A stretch of DNA of 33,410 bases from a virus (lineage: Duplodnaviria; Caudoviricetes): the IMG/VR virus record IMGVR_UViG_3300028396_000031, positions 1 through 33,410 of that record. The stretch is one strand, 5' to 3'. Position 1 is the first letter of the stretch, and the number at the start of each line of letters is the position of its first letter. Shown piece by piece: positions 12,526 to 30,449 of the stretch. The position numbers and the translations under genes were made by a program. The notes under the pieces are model-generated. The model saw only the letters and a program-made list of their open reading frames with translations, did not search any database and was not told the DNA's origin.

Positions 12526-12825
12526 TTAGATTCCTAATGCAGTATTAAGTGTTGATTGTTTTGGAAGATATATTTTTAACCCGGCTTTAAAGTCCCATAT
12601 TGGGTCTTTAATAGCATTAGGATTACGTGAAGCAAATACCCACCATAGACCTGGGTCACCATACAAGTCGTTGGCTAATAAGTCTGGACGGTATTGGTAT
12701 GTTTGATTAAGTTCAACTATTTGGTCGTCTTCTTCTTTTGGAATATTACGATTAACCATAATGTCTAAGTATCCATCTGCCATTGCAGTTTCAAAATAAG
12801 GTGATGTTTGTTGATAAGTTGCCAT
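12526..12825 (-). CDS. gp53: Baseplate wedge subunit, gp53-like (LysM-like)
   Basis: YQYRPDLLANDLYGDPGLWWVFASRN...IYLP is the gp53/LysM-type motif. The ATG at 12825 overlaps the upstream stop (TAATG) and has AGAGGA upstream. The track start is 12831. Confidence 0.75.
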   Translation of the reverse strand: MATYQQTSPYFETAMADGYLDIMVNRNIPKEEDDQIVELNQTYQYRPDLLANDLYGDPGLWWVFASRNPNAIKDPIWDFKAGLKIYLPKQSTLNTALGI

Positions 12826-13991
12826 TACCATTGTCCTCTCTGTGATAGTCCTTGACCGCTAGCATAATCCTTAAGACTGAATTGTCTACTTTGTTCTTCT
12901 CTTGTTACTATTGGTAATAATATTATGCTTAATTCTATTTTTGTAGGAACATAAGTTGCTCCTGATTTTGCTAGATTTGTTCCTTCATTTGCTGTTCGAA
13001 ATCCTTGTTCAGCACCAACATCAGCACCTATACCAAATAGTCTGCCAATACGTGATGCAATTCCAAACATACCATAATTGCCTGAACCACCATTTAGTCT
13101 TGCTCTTGTTTGTTGTGCCTCAATACTTCCATACCCTGCTACACTTGTTCTGATGTAGTCCACATTATCTGGCAGAGAATAGTTAAATTGACTTACTACT
13201 GCTTTATGATAGTTAAATTGATCAGGACCAAATCCTGTAACACTTAATAGTGGAGGAGGTGTTCCTTTATTTTGATCTTGTCCATAAAACATTTTTGACG
13301 CAGATTTAAAAAAGTGTATGACTGCCATTAGATAATCTGCTTCTTCTGTTGACTGTGCTGTAAATGTAGCATTAATTTGTACGTCACTTATCTCACTGCT
13401 TTGATAAAAGTAAGTAGGATAATTAGAATGTGTTGGTGTTGTTTTATCATAGTTTGCACGATAGTTAACTAACACATTTGGTGTATATGGAAATATTACT
13501 CCATCTGTTTTTATTAACGGAGCAAGTATACTGTACTCATCGCCGTCTTTATATAATACATCACTGCCAGGCATCAGCCCAACTTTAAATCGCCAATCTT
13601 CAGAAAATGCTTTATTGCTAGCAGAAACATTTACAGTATCAGTTACTGATCCTAATTGTTTAATTTGTTGATTAGTTCCGGCTTGATCTGGGCCTGTTCC
13701 AGTAGGAGTACTAAAGTTTGGGCCTATCTGGTCACTTGGTGATATTGCACGGTCACCCGGAACCTGACTGCCTGTACCAACTCCAGTAAAGTCTGGCTGT
13801 GGTGCAGGTGCCGTAATAGCACGACTACCTGGTACTTGACTGCCTGTAGCAACTCCAGTAAAGTCTGGCTGTGGTGCAGGTGTCGTAATAGCACGTTCGC
13901 CTGGCACTTGGCTACCTGTAGCAACTCCAGTAAAGTTTGGAGCAACAGGTGCATTGTTTACTTTCTTTTCATTTATTGGATCTTGAGCCAT
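12825..13991 (-). CDS. Baseplate/tail-tube initiator-like protein (gp48/gp54-like) with N-terminal repeats
   Basis: GVIFPYTP...Y...THSNY...FTAQ...YLMAVIHFFKSASKMFYG...GTPPP...F.Y.LPDNVDY is a tube-fold, baseplate-cap-like pattern. Start 13991 (MAQDP) is preferred because AGAGGA precedes it. The track start is 14012. Confidence 0.6.
   Translation of the reverse strand: MAQDPINEKKVNNAPVAPNFTGVATGSQVPGERAITTPAPQPDFTGVATGSQVPGSRAITAPAPQPDFTGVGTGSQVPGDRAISPSDQIGPNFSTPTGTGPDQAGTNQQIKQLGSVTDTVNVSASNKAFSEDWRFKVGLMPGSDVLYKDGDEYSILAPLIKTDGVIFPYTPNVLVNYRANYDKTTPTHSNYPTYFYQSSEISDVQINATFTAQSTEEADYLMAVIHFFKSASKMFYGQDQNKGTPPPLLSVTGFGPDQFNYHKAVVSQFNYSLPDNVDYIRTSVAGYGSIEAQQTRARLNGGSGNYGMFGIASRIGRLFGIGADVGAEQGFRTANEGTNLAKSGATYVPTKIELSIILLPIVTREEQSRQFSLKDYASGQGLSQRGQW
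13743..13952 (-). repeat. Three tandem 72-bp (24-aa) coding repeats, PAPQPDFTGVATGSQVPGxRAITx
   Basis: GCACG anchors at 13747, 13819 and 13891 give a period of 72. The protein repeat is visible in the translation. Confidence 0.9.
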
Positions 13992-14014
13992 TCTATTTCC
14001 TCTGTTATACATAC

Positions 14015-14063: not shown

Positions 14064-14091
14064 TTGACAGGGGCCTGTTTGGCTGTATAAT
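14064..14091 (+). promoter_or_regulatory. Sigma70-type promoter for the gp55-gp47-gp46 operon
   Basis: TTGACA (14064-14069), 16-nt spacer, TATAAT (14086-14091), A-rich UP region. SD AAGGAG at 14106-14111. Confidence 0.8.
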
Positions 14092-14120: not shown

Positions 14121-15029
14121 GTGGCTGAACAAAAAATTATGAGAGGTGGACGTAGAGTCAACTATCTTAACAACCGAGACATTCTTGCAGAAATACACAA
14201 AAGTAAGAAAACATATTGCAAATATCTTAACAAAGAAACAGATTCAGATTTTGATATTATTGTAGATGACGTTAAAAAGATTAACAAGACACGTATCAAA
14301 GAAGCTAGAACAAATAAAATTACTCGTGCTAAAAAAATTGACGGAGTTATTTTAGAACCTAAAGATGTTAGTGATCAAGAATTAGTATTTCGTGTTATGA
14401 CTTGGGAACATATCCCAATGGTTGATAAAAAGCCAACTAAAGCACAGTTAAAAAAACGTGCCAAGATAGAAGATATGTTTGACGACATTGAAGAAGCCAG
14501 AGAACAAGAAGATTATGGTATCACTGACCAGGTGCATACTAAATGTAATTTTCCTCCATTCAAACACTACAAAGTTGATGAAGAAGGAAATCCTGTGCTA
14601 GTAGGCAAAAGTCATTGGAAAGGTGATTTAGAAACAGGTAAGTTTTCAAAAGATCACGGTGAAATGACTATGAAACTAGCTAACATGTTTATTAAACTAT
14701 GTGAGCGTTATGCTACTAGATCAAACTGGCGTGGTTATACATACAATGAAGAAATGCGTGGACAGGCGTTATTGCAACTAAGTCAAATTGGTCTACAGTT
14801 TGATGAATCAAAATCAGATAATCCGTTTGCTTACTACACAGCGGCCATTACTAATTCGTTTACTCGTGTACTTAATATTGAAAAGAAAAACCAAAGTATC
14901 AGAGATGACATTTTAGAAATGAATGGATTGAATCCAAGTTGGACTAGACAAAACAGTGGTCCAGATAAAGCAGATCCAAATGGACAAGCTAAAGTAACAA
15001 CTACTAAGCCAAAAGAGTCGACAAAGTAA
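14121..15029 (+). CDS. gp55: Late-transcription sigma factor, gp55-like
   Basis: NYLNNRDILAEI at the N-terminus and MFIKLCERYATRSNWRGYTYNEEM...QFDESKSDNPFAYYTAAITNSF...IEKK are gp55 motifs. Lies upstream of gp47/gp46 as in T4-like phages. GTG start with SD. Confidence 0.88.
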   Translation: MAEQKIMRGGRRVNYLNNRDILAEIHKSKKTYCKYLNKETDSDFDIIVDDVKKINKTRIKEARTNKITRAKKIDGVILEPKDVSDQELVFRVMTWEHIPMVDKKPTKAQLKKRAKIEDMFDDIEEAREQEDYGITDQVHTKCNFPPFKHYKVDEEGNPVLVGKSHWKGDLETGKFSKDHGEMTMKLANMFIKLCERYATRSNWRGYTYNEEMRGQALLQLSQIGLQFDESKSDNPFAYYTAAITNSFTRVLNIEKKNQSIRDDILEMNGLNPSWTRQNSGPDKADPNGQAKVTTTKPKESTK

Positions 15030-15046
15030 ATTTAGGTCTGTATACT
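15018..15046 (+). promoter_or_regulatory. Sigma70-like promoter upstream of gp47
   Basis: TCGACA (15018-15023), 17 nt, TATACT (15041-15046). Confidence 0.55.
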
Positions 15047-15078
15047 TTAAGTATATTTTTTTATTCATAAAGGAAGGT

Positions 15079-16095
15079 ATGAGTAATTTATTTAAAAAGG
15101 CCGCAATCCTTACAGATATACATTTTGGATTAAAGTCTAACTCAACAACACACAACGAAGACTGTTTGAATTTTGTCAAATGGTTTATTACTAAAGCAAA
15201 ACAAGAGAATTGCGATACCTGTATCATGATGGGTGATTGGCACAATAACCGTGCCGCAATTAACATTGTTACTTTAAACTATAGCTTACAAGCAATTGAG
15301 TTACTAGGCGAAGCATTTGACAGAGTGTTTTTTATTCCTGGTAATCACGACTTATACTACAGAGACAAGCGTGATATTCAATCTGCATCATGGGCTAAAC
15401 ATATCAAAAATGTACACATCATGAATGACTTTCATTCAGAAGGTGATGTACAGTTTATACCTTGGCTAGTAGGCGACGAAGCTAAAAAGATTAAAAAAAT
15501 GGAAGGACGCTATGCGTTTGGACATTTAGAACTTCCTCACTTCTTTATGAATGCAATGGTACAAATGCCAGACACTGGCGAAGTACAGAGAGAAGACTTC
15601 CAAGGCTTAGAGTCAGTTTATACAGGGCACTTTCATAAAAGACAAAGTCATAATAATATTATCTATACTGGTAATTGCTTTCCTCACAACTATGCAGACG
15701 CAGGTGATGATGACAGAGGTATGACTATATTAGAATGGGGAGAAAGTCCTACATTCCATTCATGGCCAGATCAACCTAGATATAGAGTATATAACTTAGA
15801 TGAAATGTTGGCTAAACCAGATGAACTGTTATTAGAAAAAATGCACATTCGTGTCAATTTAAATATTGATATATCATATGAAGAAGCTAGTTTTATCAGA
15901 GAAGAATTTGTAGGCAAATACAAATTAAGAGAACTTACACTTATTCCTGTTAAAAAAGATATTATGGATTCGGTTGCAGAACCTGGAGAATTAAAGTTTG
16001 AATCGGTTGACACTATTGTAACAAATCAGTTAACTTCAATTGAATCAGATCACTATGATCCTAATATGTTATTAGAAATTTACAGAGATTTATGA
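15079..16095 (+). CDS. gp47: Recombination endonuclease subunit (Mre11/SbcD-like)
   Basis: Metallophosphoesterase motifs DIHFG, GDWH, GNHD and GHFH. Confidence 0.93.
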   Translation: MSNLFKKAAILTDIHFGLKSNSTTHNEDCLNFVKWFITKAKQENCDTCIMMGDWHNNRAAINIVTLNYSLQAIELLGEAFDRVFFIPGNHDLYYRDKRDIQSASWAKHIKNVHIMNDFHSEGDVQFIPWLVGDEAKKIKKMEGRYAFGHLELPHFFMNAMVQMPDTGEVQREDFQGLESVYTGHFHKRQSHNNIIYTGNCFPHNYADAGDDDRGMTILEWGESPTFHSWPDQPRYRVYNLDEMLAKPDELLLEKMHIRVNLNIDISYEEASFIREEFVGKYKLRELTLIPVKKDIMDSVAEPGELKFESVDTIVTNQLTSIESDHYDPNMLLEIYRDL

Positions 16096-16826
16096 TCTTA
16101 TATTCTAACTCATGTAGTTTTGGTGCTAGTGGGCAAGGACACAAAATTTATCCAGAAGTAGTTGCCGAATCATTATCTGCTGAACTACACAACAATGGCC
16201 GTAACGGAAGTTGTAATCGAAGAATAATACGAAGTAGTTTGCGTTCATTAATTGAACTTACAAAAACTAACAAAAAAATAACAGCATTGATTGGATTAAC
16301 GTTTCTTAGTCGAACTGAACTATGGCAACCTCACTTATCTGCTGTTGACAATGATGGTGACTTTCATAGCATTAGCAACCAAAAAATAATAGATTTAGAT
16401 TGGAGTAAAGGAATTAATAAAACAATTAATCCTAATGTACATGAATATGCAGACGACGAAGTAAAAGATTACTACAAGCATTGGTTAATTCATTACAGCA
16501 AAGAAGGTGCTATAACTGATTTAATATCTGATTTAATAATGTTACATAGTTTTGCCGTTAACAACAACATTAATATTTTAATATTTTCTAATTGTGAACG
16601 CTTTCCTGGGCATCCTGATGTAGATCGGCAAAGTCCTTTCTTGGCAAGTTTGTTAGACTATGTTAAACTAAACACTAATATTATAGATCCATGGGATTTT
16701 TCTTTTGCTGACTTTGCTTTAGAATTAGGACACACTCCTAAAGATGCTAAACAGTTTGGTCTCAATGGACATCCCGGTAAACAGGCTCATGAGGATTTTG
16801 GAAAGTACTTACTAAAATATGTTTAA
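16092..16826 (+). CDS. Hypothetical SGNH/GDSL-hydrolase-like protein
   Basis: ILYSNSCSFG (block I-like), NGRNGSCN (block II-like), NGHPGKQAH (block V-like). Overlaps the gp47 stop (ATGA) and the gp46 start. Confidence 0.55.
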   Translation: MILYSNSCSFGASGQGHKIYPEVVAESLSAELHNNGRNGSCNRRIIRSSLRSLIELTKTNKKITALIGLTFLSRTELWQPHLSAVDNDGDFHSISNQKIIDLDWSKGINKTINPNVHEYADDEVKDYYKHWLIHYSKEGAITDLISDLIMLHSFAVNNNINILIFSNCERFPGHPDVDRQSPFLASLLDYVKLNTNIIDPWDFSFADFALELGHTPKDAKQFGLNGHPGKQAHEDFGKYLLKYV

Positions 16827-18588
16827 ATTAAAAACACTTACAGTTAAAAACTTTATGAGTGTGGGTAATGCCACACAAGCAGTTAACTTTGACCGAAATG
16901 ATTTAACACTAGTACTTGGTGTTAACATTGACCTTGGAGGCGATGATAGTGGTGCTAGGAATGGTACAGGTAAAACCACTATCATTAACGCCCTTTCATA
17001 TGCACTGTATGGTCAAGCATTAACAAATATCAAACGTGATAACTTGATTAACAAAACTAATTCAAAAGGCATGCTAGTTAGTTTAGAGTTTGAGCATAAC
17101 GGTGTAACACATAAAATAGAACGTGGACGTAAAAAGAATGTAATGCGTTTTTATGTAGGTGACGAAGAGCAAGATATCACTGACATGGCACAAGGTGATA
17201 GTAGAGAAACACAAAAATATATTGAATCAATGCTTGGTATGAGTCATGAAATGTTTAAGCATTTAGTTGCATTAAACACTTATACTGATCCATTTTTAAA
17301 CTTACGTGCCAACGATCAAAAAGATATTATTGAGCAGTTGCTTGGTATTACAATGCTAAGTGAAAAAGCAAACAATCTTAAAGAACGCCTTAAAGAAACT
17401 AAAGATAAGATTAAAGAAGAAGAAATAAGAATTGATGCTGAACGTGATGCCAATGAAAAAATGAAAGAACAAGTAGAAAGTCTCAAACGTAGACAAACAA
17501 TGTGGGCTAATAAAAAGAAAGAAGACGTAGATAGCTTTACAATAGCAATTACAAACTTAGAAAAAATTGATATCGATAAAGAACTTGATAGTCACAAACA
17601 ACTTGCTATACACAATCAAAACAAAAAAGATCATGATGATCTTACTGATGCTGTCAATCGTGCTAATCGTGATATTGCTAAAGAGCAGGGTAATGTTGAC
17701 AAACTAGAACAAGACATTGTGTTACTTAAAGAACATAAGTGTCATAGCTGTGGACAAGAAATACATGACGAAAAGCATGAGGAACAGTTAAAGGATAAAC
17801 AAGATACTTTAGTTAGAGTGCAAGATGATATTACAAAGCACACAGAGACCTTACAACAGCTCACAGACGCATTAAATGAACTAGGTGACGTTGGCTTTGC
17901 TCCAGAAGTATTTTACACAAACGAGTCAGATGCTTTTGAACATAAGAATTCAATTACTACGCTAGAAGCACAGTTAAATTCAAAACAAGACGAAGCTGAT
18001 CCTTATGTTGAGCAAATTAAAGAAATGGAAGAAAGTTCAACGCAAGAGCCTAGCTACGAAACAATTAACGAACTTACTAAATTACGAGAACATCAAGAGT
18101 TCTTACAAAAACTATTAACTAATAAAGATTCATTTATTAGAAAACGAATAATTGATCAAAATCTAAGTTATCTTAACGCACGACTAAGTTATTATCTTGA
18201 TAAGATCGGACTGCCACATACAGTCACCTTCCTTAACGATCTATCAGTAGAGATTACAGAACTTGGTCGTGAGTTAGATTTTGACAATTTAAGTAGAGGC
18301 GAGCGTAACAGATTGATACTTTCGCTGTCATGGAGTTTCCGAGATGTTTATGAAAGTCTCTACGACCCTATTAACTTACTATTCATTGATGAATTGATTG
18401 ATTCGGGCATGGACGCCAGTGGTGTAGAAAGTGCCCTTGCAATTCTTAAGAAAATGAGTCGTGAGCAAAACAAGTCAATTTGGTTAGTGTCACACAAAGA
18501 TGAATTATCAGGACGTGTCAATAACATTATGACTGTTACAAAAGAAAACGGCTTTACTACATACGGTACAGACGTAGAATCGGTATAA
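16819..18588 (+). CDS. gp46: Recombination ATPase subunit (Rad50/SbcC-like)
   Basis: Walker A NGTGKTT, coiled coil with CHSC zinc hook, signature LSRGE, Walker B LLFIDE, D-loop SGMD, H-loop VSH. Confidence 0.95.
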   Translation: MFKLKTLTVKNFMSVGNATQAVNFDRNDLTLVLGVNIDLGGDDSGARNGTGKTTIINALSYALYGQALTNIKRDNLINKTNSKGMLVSLEFEHNGVTHKIERGRKKNVMRFYVGDEEQDITDMAQGDSRETQKYIESMLGMSHEMFKHLVALNTYTDPFLNLRANDQKDIIEQLLGITMLSEKANNLKERLKETKDKIKEEEIRIDAERDANEKMKEQVESLKRRQTMWANKKKEDVDSFTIAITNLEKIDIDKELDSHKQLAIHNQNKKDHDDLTDAVNRANRDIAKEQGNVDKLEQDIVLLKEHKCHSCGQEIHDEKHEEQLKDKQDTLVRVQDDITKHTETLQQLTDALNELGDVGFAPEVFYTNESDAFEHKNSITTLEAQLNSKQDEADPYVEQIKEMEESSTQEPSYETINELTKLREHQEFLQKLLTNKDSFIRKRIIDQNLSYLNARLSYYLDKIGLPHTVTFLNDLSVEITELGRELDFDNLSRGERNRLILSLSWSFRDVYESLYDPINLLFIDELIDSGMDASGVESALAILKKMSREQNKSIWLVSHKDELSGRVNNIMTVTKENGFTTYGTDVESV

Positions 18589-18625: not shown

Positions 18626-19099
18626 ATGCTACACAATTCTAATAAAGGAACTATATTGTCATACGAAAATCCATGGATGTATCAGGATGCTGTCTTTGAA
18701 ACAGAAGACATTGGTGAGATGTACGGTTTCGTTTATAGAATTACAAATACCACTAATGGGCATGACTATGTTGGGAAGAAGTTTTTCTGGACAGTAAAGA
18801 AACGCCCACCACTCAAAGGCAAGAAAAATAAAAGAAGATCAACTGTTGAAACGGACTGGAAGACCTACTGGGGATCTAGTGACCGTTTGACCCGCGATAT
18901 AGAAAACTTAGGCAAAGAAAAATTCTCAAGGCAAATAATCCACTTATGTAAGGCAAGAGGTGAAACAAATTACATGGAAGCCTATTATCAGTTTAAAGAA
19001 AATGTATTACTACGTGATGACAATTACAATGGTATTATAAACATTAGACTTGGTATTGGCAGTGTAAAGAATATACTCGTAGAAGACTTAAACAAATAA
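18626..19099 (+). CDS. Stand-alone GIY-YIG family endonuclease (catalytic domain only)
   Basis: YGFVYRITNTTNGHDYVGKK (GIY-YIG motif), YWGSS, conserved E (NYME) and N (NYN). A basic insert KKRPPLKGKKNKRRS. An in-frame TTG at 18656 with AAAGGAA upstream may be the true start. Confidence 0.8.
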   Translation: MLHNSNKGTILSYENPWMYQDAVFETEDIGEMYGFVYRITNTTNGHDYVGKKFFWTVKKRPPLKGKKNKRRSTVETDWKTYWGSSDRLTRDIENLGKEKFSRQIIHLCKARGETNYMEAYYQFKENVLLRDDNYNGIINIRLGIGSVKNILVEDLNK

Positions 19100-19100
19100 T

Positions 19101-19470
19101 CAGCCAATGATGCAGATGTGTTCTGTGTCCTAAGAGGTAATCACGTAACAGCGTGTGGAACTTACAAGAATAGACTTGTAAACGGGACGGCAAACAACAA
19201 CTAAAGAATAAAAGCTAAATGATGTAGGCTCTGAGAAAAAGCAACCTACGTGCTTAGATAATTTCGCTAACTAGGGATTATCAAGCATCCGCCAGATGAA
19301 TCTAGAGTAAGGGGTACCGGCTGACCGCCTCTGTGTAGTATATTACAATCTCTTTTAGTTAGTATGACGTCAGTACTCGGATAATGTACTACGGACATGA
19401 TTTGCCTGCGGATAGGTGAATTATGACTGTATCTGGATAATGCACGTAAGGGTTTATACTAGCATTGTTT
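19101..19470 (+). ncRNA. Putative large structured non-coding RNA of unknown class
   Basis: No long ORF. About ten nested helices, a terminal helix (19106-19113 with 19462-19469) and an 8-bp loop pseudoknot (19266-19273 with 19356-19363). Many G-U pairs favour the + strand. Confidence 0.65.
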
Positions 19471-19498
19471 ATTATCGTTTATAGATTAAAAGAAAAAC

Positions 19499-19543
19499 AA
19501 CTTCGAGTGTTAACGAAGAAGTTAGATGTCGCAGACATCTTTA
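19499..19543 (+). terminator. Tandem hairpins after the ncRNA, possible terminator or processing site
   Basis: AACTTC...GAAGTT (19499-19523), then AGATGTC-GCA-GACATCT (19524-19540) followed by a short T run. Confidence 0.4.
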
Positions 19544-19629: not shown

Positions 19630-19653
19630 AAAAAAAAGCACCCCTTGAGGTGC
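19630..19653 (-). terminator. Intrinsic terminator for the small membrane-protein gene
   Basis: The minus strand reads GCACC-TCAAGG-GGTGC-TTTTTTTT. Confidence 0.8.
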
Positions 19654-19692: not shown

Positions 19693-19923
19693 TTACTTCT
19701 TATTCCAAATTGTGTATAAAACCCACACTGCAATTAAACCAACTAAGCCTTCAGCTCCTAAAGATTTAACTACTCCAGTTACGTTACCAATTACGTTAAC
19801 TTCTGGAAAAAACGGTATGTTACCTACGCCAAGTAGTTCTAATACGATAAACATCGCCATTAGTGATACAGCTACGTCAGCTATAGATGAACTCCATTTC
19901 TGAATGTTTTTTAATACTTCCAT
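19693..19923 (-). CDS. Small two-helix membrane protein of unknown function
   Basis: 76 aa with hydrophobic segments VAVSLMAMFIVLELLGV and GLVGLIAVWVLYTIW and a basic C-terminus. Strong SD AGGAGG and its own terminator. Confidence 0.8.
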   Translation of the reverse strand: MEVLKNIQKWSSSIADVAVSLMAMFIVLELLGVGNIPFFPEVNVIGNVTGVVKSLGAEGLVGLIAVWVLYTIWNKK

Positions 19924-29996: not shown

Positions 29997-30089
29997 TGCT
30001 AATTACACGGGGTAGTTAGTTTATGCTGTTTAACCATACCAGCGTAGTGGCTAGAACCCACAATGGACTTCTATAAGGAGAAATATAAA

Positions 30090-30449
30090 ATGGGTAGACC
30101 AATAGACAAATACTTTTTAGGCGCAACAGGCGGAGCACCAGCAACAATTCCAGTAAGAGCGGACATTGGTGGTACAGACTTTGAAGGATATATTATATCA
30201 CAAAAAGGTCGCGATACATTCAAAGTATCAAACGATGGTGATACAGTACAAGGTGAATGCACTTTAGTTAACAAACTTACAGGACATGACGACGGTGAAA
30301 TGTCTATAGTAGGTATTGCTGACGGTGGTGATGCAGTTGCTATTCAAAAAATTACAGCTCATAGAGCAGTTGGATACAATGGCACAGTTTACACTTGGGC
30401 AGTTGCAGATGACTCATCTGAATCATTACTAAGACTTACAGCTATATAA
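30090..30449 (+). CDS. Putative virion structural (head decoration-like) protein
   Basis: MGRPIDKYFLG... ATG 30090 has SD AAGGAG (30075-30080). The track start is 30063. Function is inferred from its late promoter and position after gp23. Confidence 0.6.
   Translation: MGRPIDKYFLGATGGAPATIPVRADIGGTDFEGYIISQKGRDTFKVSNDGDTVQGECTLVNKLTGHDDGEMSIVGIADGGDAVAIQKITAHRAVGYNGTVYTWAVADDSSESLLRLTAI

Follow-up and report, generated by a model that had tools for sequence, protein, structure and literature searches.

The 33,410-nt stretch of DNA analysed here, hereafter the window, comes from a T4-like jumbo myovirus related to RaK2 and PA5oct. Its gp46 is closest to the gp46 proteins of PA5oct-like, Phosso, Atu_ph07 and RaK2-like phages. 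Baseplate genes on the minus strand are followed by gp55, gp47, gp46 and a SegE-like ORF on the plus strand, then by a gp26-like hub gene on the minus strand and by portal and capsid genes. A sigma70-type promoter (TTGACA-16-TATAAT, 14064-14091, plus strand), recognised by consensus match only, heads the gp55-gp47-gp46-segE-RNA block. The genes for the late sigma factor gp55, gp47 (SbcD), a variable 244-aa ORF and gp46 (SbcC) occupy 14121-18588 and are the conserved upstream neighbours of a structured RNA. They are followed by segE (18626-19099, plus strand), which encodes a 157-aa single-domain SegE-like GIY-YIG nuclease (PF19835, E = 1.4e-38; phrog_447). The RNA element begins at the segE stop codon, extends from about 19103 to 19441 and has no adjoining tRNAs in the window. 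Further downstream, a terminator-like hairpin (19638-19653, plus strand) lies at the strand switch, ahead of a convergent 76-aa ORF and the hub gene.

Other features were recorded alongside this block. Variable ORFs are inserted among gp47, gp46, segE and the RNA, with the block kept intact (16092-16826 in the window; loci L027, L109, L124 and L143), and the variable ORF of the window has a weak DUF6071 match, the others being unassigned. The 76-aa ORF (19693-19923, minus strand) is membrane-like, has no family match and is conserved in near relatives; it also lies on the deepest contigs of several RNA runs. A virion protein (12825-14012, minus strand) has a set of about four imperfect copies of APQPDFTGVATGSQVPG close to its N terminus. 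The Rfam freshwater-2 RNA was found at 30001-30092, upstream of a small ORF, with 63.8 bits, above its gathering score.

The initial annotation had read a closed, multi-domain, pseudoknotted RNA fold, and all the pairings it listed are present in the window sequence. In relatives, 80 segE loci were examined for the RNA, and two motif scans added 240 loci, reaching a distant subfamily whose segE is 34-50% identical. The resulting 251 full-length copies gave 148 non-redundant homologues, with a near set of 57 sequences. Window positions conserved at 97% or more among the 148 copies number 83, a count raised in part by the use of motifs to find many of the copies, especially at the search motifs themselves. 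Folding energy was not informative, unlike covariation: it was no better than chance on the plus strand (z = -0.69, with 26 of 100 shuffles folding equally well), and z was -0.25 on the minus strand. In 48 homologues taken from 114 candidates, 87.7% of cells in the comparative structure pair, against 72.7% in shuffles and 38-44% in slid controls. Double changes occur at 55 of 73 pairs in these homologues, and none of 500 shuffles scored as high. A tree-aware G-test found 21 significant pairs, 18 of them canonical, in the near set and 20, 14 of them canonical, in all 148. Covariation across the 148 non-redundant homologues thus supports a multi-domain, pseudoknotted RNA under selection at the RNA level.

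The 5' domain (19103-19191) differs between subfamilies and comprises P1, the TGTCCT/GGGACG helix and two inner hairpins. P1 joins GCC (19103-19105) to GGC (19189-19191), is 97% paired and had gone unnoticed before. A conserved AAAUGAU and a hairpin with a GAAA(A/C)AG loop follow (19217-19250) and recur in all three PA5oct copies. The next hairpin (19251-19287), supported by covariation, presents in its loop (19266-19273) the 5' side of pseudoknot 1, which pairs with 19356-19363. This long-range pairing was in the initial annotation and it held firmly, with all eight pairs double-changed in the 48 homologues and 100% pairing in the 57 near sequences. The conserved core (19289-19363) contains a CCG, pseudoknot 2, a three-way junction of AGAG/CTCT, an AGGGG/CCTCT stem and a TGTA/TACA hairpin, and the 3' strand of pseudoknot 1; it is homologous in GAP32, RaK2 and PA5oct. 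A 12-bp hairpin supported by covariation, hairpin B (19396-19425), lies between two short repeats. Comparative evidence bore out the TGTAGG/CCTAC helix, the GATAATTTC hairpin, AGAG/CTCT, the GGGG..CCTC stem, TGTA/TACA, the 12-bp hairpin and the hairpins of the 5' domain.

Other parts of the earlier reading did not survive. The supposed closing helix (19106-19113 with 19462-19469) is paired in only 32% of the 57 near homologues. CCAGATG/TATCTGG is 73% paired with one of its seven pairs double-changed, and it is supplanted by pseudoknot 2, missed at first, in which CAG (19293-19295) pairs with the loop CTG (19321-19323) in 148 of 148 copies. GTAC/GTAC, at 75% paired, is doubtful; some of these near-set percentages are depressed by register shifts. 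With the closing helix gone, and with P1, the second pseudoknot, the twin repeats and a 3' double hairpin lying outside the first reading, the fold is not closed over its whole length. Neither the RNase P-like words (GAGGAA, AGAUAAAU) nor the GGA loops of CsrA type are conserved between subfamilies, and both were dropped as candidates. The element is a conserved, double-pseudoknotted RNA fold, and it belongs to a family.

The family matches no known class, as first proposed. A search of Rfam on the element gave nothing at gathering threshold, nor anything at E up to 10 except a weak overlap of the cow-rumen-2 RNA (RF02947) with 19251-19352 (17.8 bits, E = 1.7), which is far under the gathering score of 66 bits and was treated as chance. 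No description of the family was found in the available literature. Large supplementary lists of candidate phage RNAs exist and could hold fragments of it. The RNA is new as a sequence and structure class.

The family spans giant phages, from wild phages of seas and lakes to cultured phages of E. coli and Pseudomonas. Two motifs gave estimates of about 350 and about 460 stored stretches among uncultured aquatic contigs. Records of the family include at least 72 RaK2-like and 11 PA5oct-like, and 72 records hold 285 places. It is thus a large structured RNA class, absent from Rfam and present across hundreds of uncultured aquatic contigs as well as in cultured phages. Simple sequence searches scarcely link the two groups: blastn of the RNA found no match in cultured phages, and nhmmer profiles reached at best E = 0.039 between the aquatic and GAP32 types and gave no significant match at the cultured loci. 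A covariance model trained on aquatic copies alone was run over all 358,663 bases of GAP32. Its top four matches were intergenic elements of the family (E = 1.3e-5, 0.0019, 0.012 and 0.098; next 1.8), four of the five GAP32 copies, the missed one having a long insert. The RaK2 core is close to that of the window, and pseudoknot 2 is paired in all 21 RaK2-type copies with the core located; eight more loci yielded no core by that pattern. The same model found no significant match in PA5oct, and the homology there consists of motifs read by eye, namely the GAAA(A/C)AGA hairpin and pseudoknot 2, which covaries.

Cultured relatives carry several copies. GAP32 has five paralogues at 35, 99, 177, 261 and 341 kb, all on the plus strand and 53-84 kb apart. 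This spacing is more even than expected (P = 0.005 for the minimum gap and 0.0008 for the maximum gap), and since positions in RaK2-like phages are shared by descent it counts as one observation. BF and Munch have five copies, PBECO4 four, XaC1 at least four and RaK2 three, co-oriented within each genome, and PA5oct has three, all on the plus strand. Phosso has one copy only, its homology judged by eye, and two complete aquatic genomes have one copy each. The ancestral copy always lies beside gp46/47 and a resolvase gene at a convergent strand switch, and extra copies lie away from recombination genes. The element thus has a fixed slot between a resolvase gene and the baseplate hub gene, with three to five co-oriented dispersed copies in cultured relatives. 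Atu_ph07 gave no RNA homologue next to gp46, nor did SCTP-2 next to its resolvase gene. Scans of bacterial genomes gave 0 and 7 matches, of which five were without the RNA and two were phage-like contigs in one MAG. These two Haliscomenobacter MAG contigs (L327 and L329), each with segE, the RNA and gp26, are probably binned phage contigs, or else hint at a host.

The gene upstream of the RNA is less constant than the RNA itself. The RNA lies 3' of segE in 76 of the 80 segE loci, the other four being without downstream DNA. Of the distinct copies found by motif, 101 have upstream DNA; segE adjoins the RNA in 75 of them, lies 159-1176 nt off in 16 and was not seen in 10. A PD-(D/E)XK resolvase fills the slot in several of these 10, with PF24608 and phrog_244 matches in the two that were tested. 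segE is present without a PD-(D/E)XK resolvase in two complete genomes, and the 71% complete record G001, which carries the RNA, shows the reverse and has no segE. A PD-(D/E)XK resolvase also fills the slot in PA5oct and Phosso, and EndoVII does so in GAP32; in all three a largely non-coding gap of 0.8-1.5 kb follows before the hub gene. In Phosso an RNase HI gene (L342:7774-8160) lies directly after this syntenic gap. Foreign ORFs separate segE from the RNA in many loci, and four Kyanoviridae-type segE loci are without the RNA. A second, homing-type GIY-YIG-looking ORF lies between the two in L137 (G003:C1, about 312.1-312.8 kb) and L151, and G003 has several further SegE-family matches. Because relatives have unrelated resolvases in this slot, SegE is not a dedicated partner of the RNA. 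The presence of three unrelated nucleases in one post-gp46 slot (window 18626-19099; L088:781-1290; L345:4903-5397) also suggests that the SegE-like family, widely annotated as 'NAD synthetase' (phrog_447), may be a Holliday-junction resolvase. No sequence relative of SegE was found in the PDB.

A clue to function lies in the twin repeats that flank hairpin B, the last hairpin before the RNA end, which the initial annotation had not seen. Copy 1, CT(C)GGATAAT (19376-19385), has one extra base; copy 2, CTGGATAAT (19433-19441), would form the 3' end of the RNA, as the PA5oct transcript ncRNA004 ends on the equivalent repeat. The sole significant non-canonical covariation in the near set joins these two repeats, and it is covariation by identity. 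No third site in the RNA covaries with them by the tree-aware G-test. The repeat hexamers are identical by column in 144 of 148 aquatic copies, against 34.5 expected, and the other four look misaligned by eye. These four rows (L095, L101, L182 and L193) were left out of a count of changes over a tree from which the repeats had been excluded. At least 27 switches were counted at position 19379/19435 and 21 at position 19383/19439, each with 0 of 144 rows mixed, and position 19385/19441 was mixed in 3 of 144. RaK2-type copies have another repeat word, again matched (trinucleotide in 21 of 21, hexamer in 20 of 21 with one mixed), and RaK2 itself has a further matched variant. Within single genomes (GAP32, Munch) the repeat variants differ between paralogues but match within each copy, which argues for a local constraint and against a shared protein or RNA partner. 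Cross-pairing of the repeat flanks was rejected at 53-55% paired. The simplest reading is that repeat 1 of the RNA would base-pair with repeat 2 on the template DNA strand, a pairing that demands identity and tolerates a small bulge in copy 1.

The second repeat is followed by a variable spacer, beyond which conservation resumes. This spacer (19442-19498), 13-72 nt long and on average 73% AT where the core is 56% AT, is a candidate unwinding element. It is followed by a conserved double hairpin (19499-19540), supported by covariation, the first hairpin of which has a GAGYG..A(G/A)CGA loop found in 144 of 148 copies; it may be a single-strand DNA loading signal or a terminator. The same hairpin motif lies on the strand opposite the RNA in PA5oct (L341:7801-7830) and Phosso (L342:7466-7487), which fits a signal in single-stranded DNA better than an RNA domain.

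Promoters differ between the groups. Every GAP32 and BF copy lies behind its own TG(A/G)AAC..TATAAT promoter, of a class that lies upstream of DNA-synthesis genes in CBB according to the available text (PMC5259590), and the GAP32 copies combine these promoters with the 3' hairpin pair. PA5oct copies lie behind sigma70 promoters. Aquatic copies have no dedicated promoter, the RNA following segE under the upstream operon promoter only. A late-type TAA(A/C/G/T)TA motif precedes segE in most loci (67 motif counts, 81 upstream regions).

The element is present in RNA libraries. In five of eight metatranscriptome runs for the lineage of the window, a near-identical contig links segE with the 5' portion of the RNA, contigs giving neither strand nor level. 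Depth is low over the RNA and high over the 76-aa ORF, figures that cannot rank expression, and contig ends range from 19171 to 19460, with two studies stopping at 19252, and cannot fix the RNA end. Where contig joints cross the element, the intervening sequence is unknown, and they demonstrate no splice. In PA5oct one of the three copies, a paralogue of the syntenic element, is ncRNA004, a published ncRNA of low abundance that is highest early and makes up at most 0.08% of phage reads in the available text (Lood et al. 2020, PMC7318152). Its published 3' end (246734) is the last base of the second repeat, an end that is itself an RNA-seq coverage boundary. Like the window RNA it has the GAAA(A/C)AGA hairpin, pseudoknot 2 and the repeat-hairpin-repeat end; unlike it, ncRNA004 is about 620 nt long with a different 5' part, and the available report presents it as an unexplained transcript. 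The family gives this orphan transcript a candidate role.

Multiple co-oriented, spaced copies and strictly coupled twin repeats point to a cis-acting role of the RNA on its own DNA. We see about an even chance that it serves R-loop replication origins as a structured pre-primer, like RNA II of ColE1. This reading draws on twin-repeat identity, the ColE1 layout, the co-oriented spaced copies, the promoters of the GAP32 and BF copies, parallels with T4 origins and the RNase HI gene after the syntenic gap in Phosso. RNA polymerase would transcribe through the element, and the folded RNA would present repeat 1. Repeat 2, about one RNA-DNA hybrid long, would then be made after hairpin B. By pairing with the DNA template of repeat 2, repeat 1 would anchor the RNA and so seed a persistent R-loop that reaches into the AT-rich spacer. 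The 3' end used by the phage polymerase would come from RNase H action or from termination, and helicase or primase would be loaded at the double hairpin of the displaced strand. An R-loop origin would have a promoter upstream and an AT-rich region downstream, and both are found here in the GAP32 and BF promoters and the 73% AT spacer.

Several observations count against the pre-primer reading. Cumulative skew follows gene strand, and at four-fold sites the G-C skew of plus-strand genes is slightly below that of minus-strand genes in four of four genomes, giving no leading-strand sign for the plus strand. Both complete aquatic genomes have a single copy, and aquatic copies have a late-type motif before segE and no promoter of their own. 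The 83 near-invariant positions exceed the obvious needs of priming, and T4 origins share no motif and need no structured RNA. The mixed rows at 19385/19441 and the single mixed RaK2-type hexamer are exceptions to strict identity. The spacing P values, the ncRNA004 end and the PA5oct homology also weigh less for being one observation, a coverage boundary and a judgement by eye, respectively.

Four other explanations were weighed. An ornate RNA acting in trans, as a scaffold or protein sponge of the ROOL, GOLLD or OLE kind, is unlikely but the likeliest of the four. The large size, two pseudoknots and many invariant bases of the element would suit such a role, as would the promoters and 3' hairpin pair in GAP32. 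Homo-base contacts would then hold the twin repeats, which resemble T-loop sequences, as the two sides of a pseudo-symmetric internal loop, for example an interdigitated double T-loop. However, identity over 7-9 consecutive positions, through changes among A, G, U and C, would be hard to maintain by symmetric non-canonical pairs, and the flanking cross-helices are poorly paired. An RNA acting in trans has no need of co-oriented, evenly spaced copies, and the PA5oct paralogue is rare.

It is rather improbable that the element is a cis-acting R-loop or pause/termination device other than a first-round origin, such as a start site for recombination-dependent replication, a source of substrates for gp46/47 and the resolvase, or a transcription stop at the strand switch. 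The constant place of the ancestral copy beside these genes at a convergent strand switch would fit, as would the late-type motif before segE and the likeness of hairpin B with its 7-9 nt tail to a pause hairpin. Against this, the extra copies lie elsewhere under their own promoters, and a terminator needs no fold of 340-600 nt. A ribozyme, self-processing or acting on other RNA or DNA, is a slimmer prospect again, and would be compatible with a primer role if it made the 3' end. The compact double-pseudoknot core and invariant unpaired purines speak for catalysis, but no Rfam ribozyme, intron or RNase P model matched the window at E up to 10 or the homologues at E up to 1. No catalytic core motifs of group I or II introns, RNase P or tmRNA, no exon context and no tRNA-like domain were found for the RNA, and the RNA contig joints demonstrate no splice. 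A guide or scaffold for an RNA-guided SegE nuclease is very improbable, for although segE and the RNA lie close together and are joined on RNA contigs, PD-(D/E)XK resolvase or EndoVII takes the same slot, G001 has the RNA alone, foreign ORFs part the pair, the Kyanoviridae-type segE loci do without the RNA, no variable guide lies inside the fold, and the obligate link to one nuclease family of an OMEGA-like system is absent.

If the pre-primer reading is right, the RNA marks exact candidate origin sites in phages whose hosts are laboratory E. coli and P. aeruginosa; the available literature searched on these phages names no replication origin. A broader and more tentative proposal is that jumbo phages related to RaK2 and PA5oct, including laboratory-tractable and therapy phages, might replicate from a dedicated double-pseudoknot RNA machine. 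It would capture its template through a covarying twin repeat, possibly make its own primer end, and have been duplicated into evenly spaced origins as genomes grew. Identity covariation of this kind would be a genomic signature of an RNA pairing with its own template DNA, and could find other RNA-primed origins.

Among known RNAs, ROOL, GOLLD and OLE are likewise large, multi-junction and pseudoknotted, and ROOL and GOLLD are often found in prophages according to the available text (PMC5737381). The phage RNA differs from them in its lack of any Rfam match, its position away from tRNAs in the window, its spaced co-oriented copies and its twin repeats. Closer in their link to replication are ARRPOF, GEBRO and PAGEV, structured motifs of 223-349 nt tied to plasmid replication regions in the available account (Weinberg 2017, PMC5737381). 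They are plasmid-borne, whilst this RNA is phage-borne and matches no Rfam model. T4 has at least five dispersed origins, three of them near strand switches, and its oriF and oriG consist of a middle promoter and an AT-rich unwinding element, as described in the available text (PMC3016281). The RNA studied here shares with these origins a T4-like phage, a middle-type promoter, a downstream AT-rich element and dispersed sites near strand switches. By contrast, the minimal T4 origins are about 100 bp long, with no common motif and no need of structured RNA, where the phage RNA is a covarying fold of 340-600 nt.

The nearest parallel is ColE1. No sequence or fold homology to RNA II or RNA I was found, with no Rfam match and 0 blastn matches of the GAP32 copy in 72,556 plasmids. 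The ColE1 RNA II strand has two identical G6 runs, at 928 and 1175, with GAGCGTAGCGA downstream on the same strand at 1332. The upstream G6 run pairs with template DNA, and the GAGCG..AGCGA motif lies in what we take to be the primosome assembly site, with a presumed role in loading. RNA II forms a persistent hybrid that is trimmed by RNase H to the primer (PMC5043065, available text). Both systems thus have a promoter-driven structured RNA of several hundred nucleotides, with identical short runs upstream and near its 3' end and GAGCG..AGCGA downstream on the same strand. Two marks of a ColE1-type replicon recur in the phage RNA: an upstream RNA segment identical to the one at the proposed hybrid start, and GAGCG..AGCGA downstream on what would be the displaced strand, the latter in 144 of 148 copies. 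The phage repeats differ in being of mixed sequence and about 55 nt apart, against 247 nt for the G6 runs, and the phage RNA differs in its two pseudoknots, its multiple copies and its phage location. The mechanism would be a variant of RNA-primed origins.
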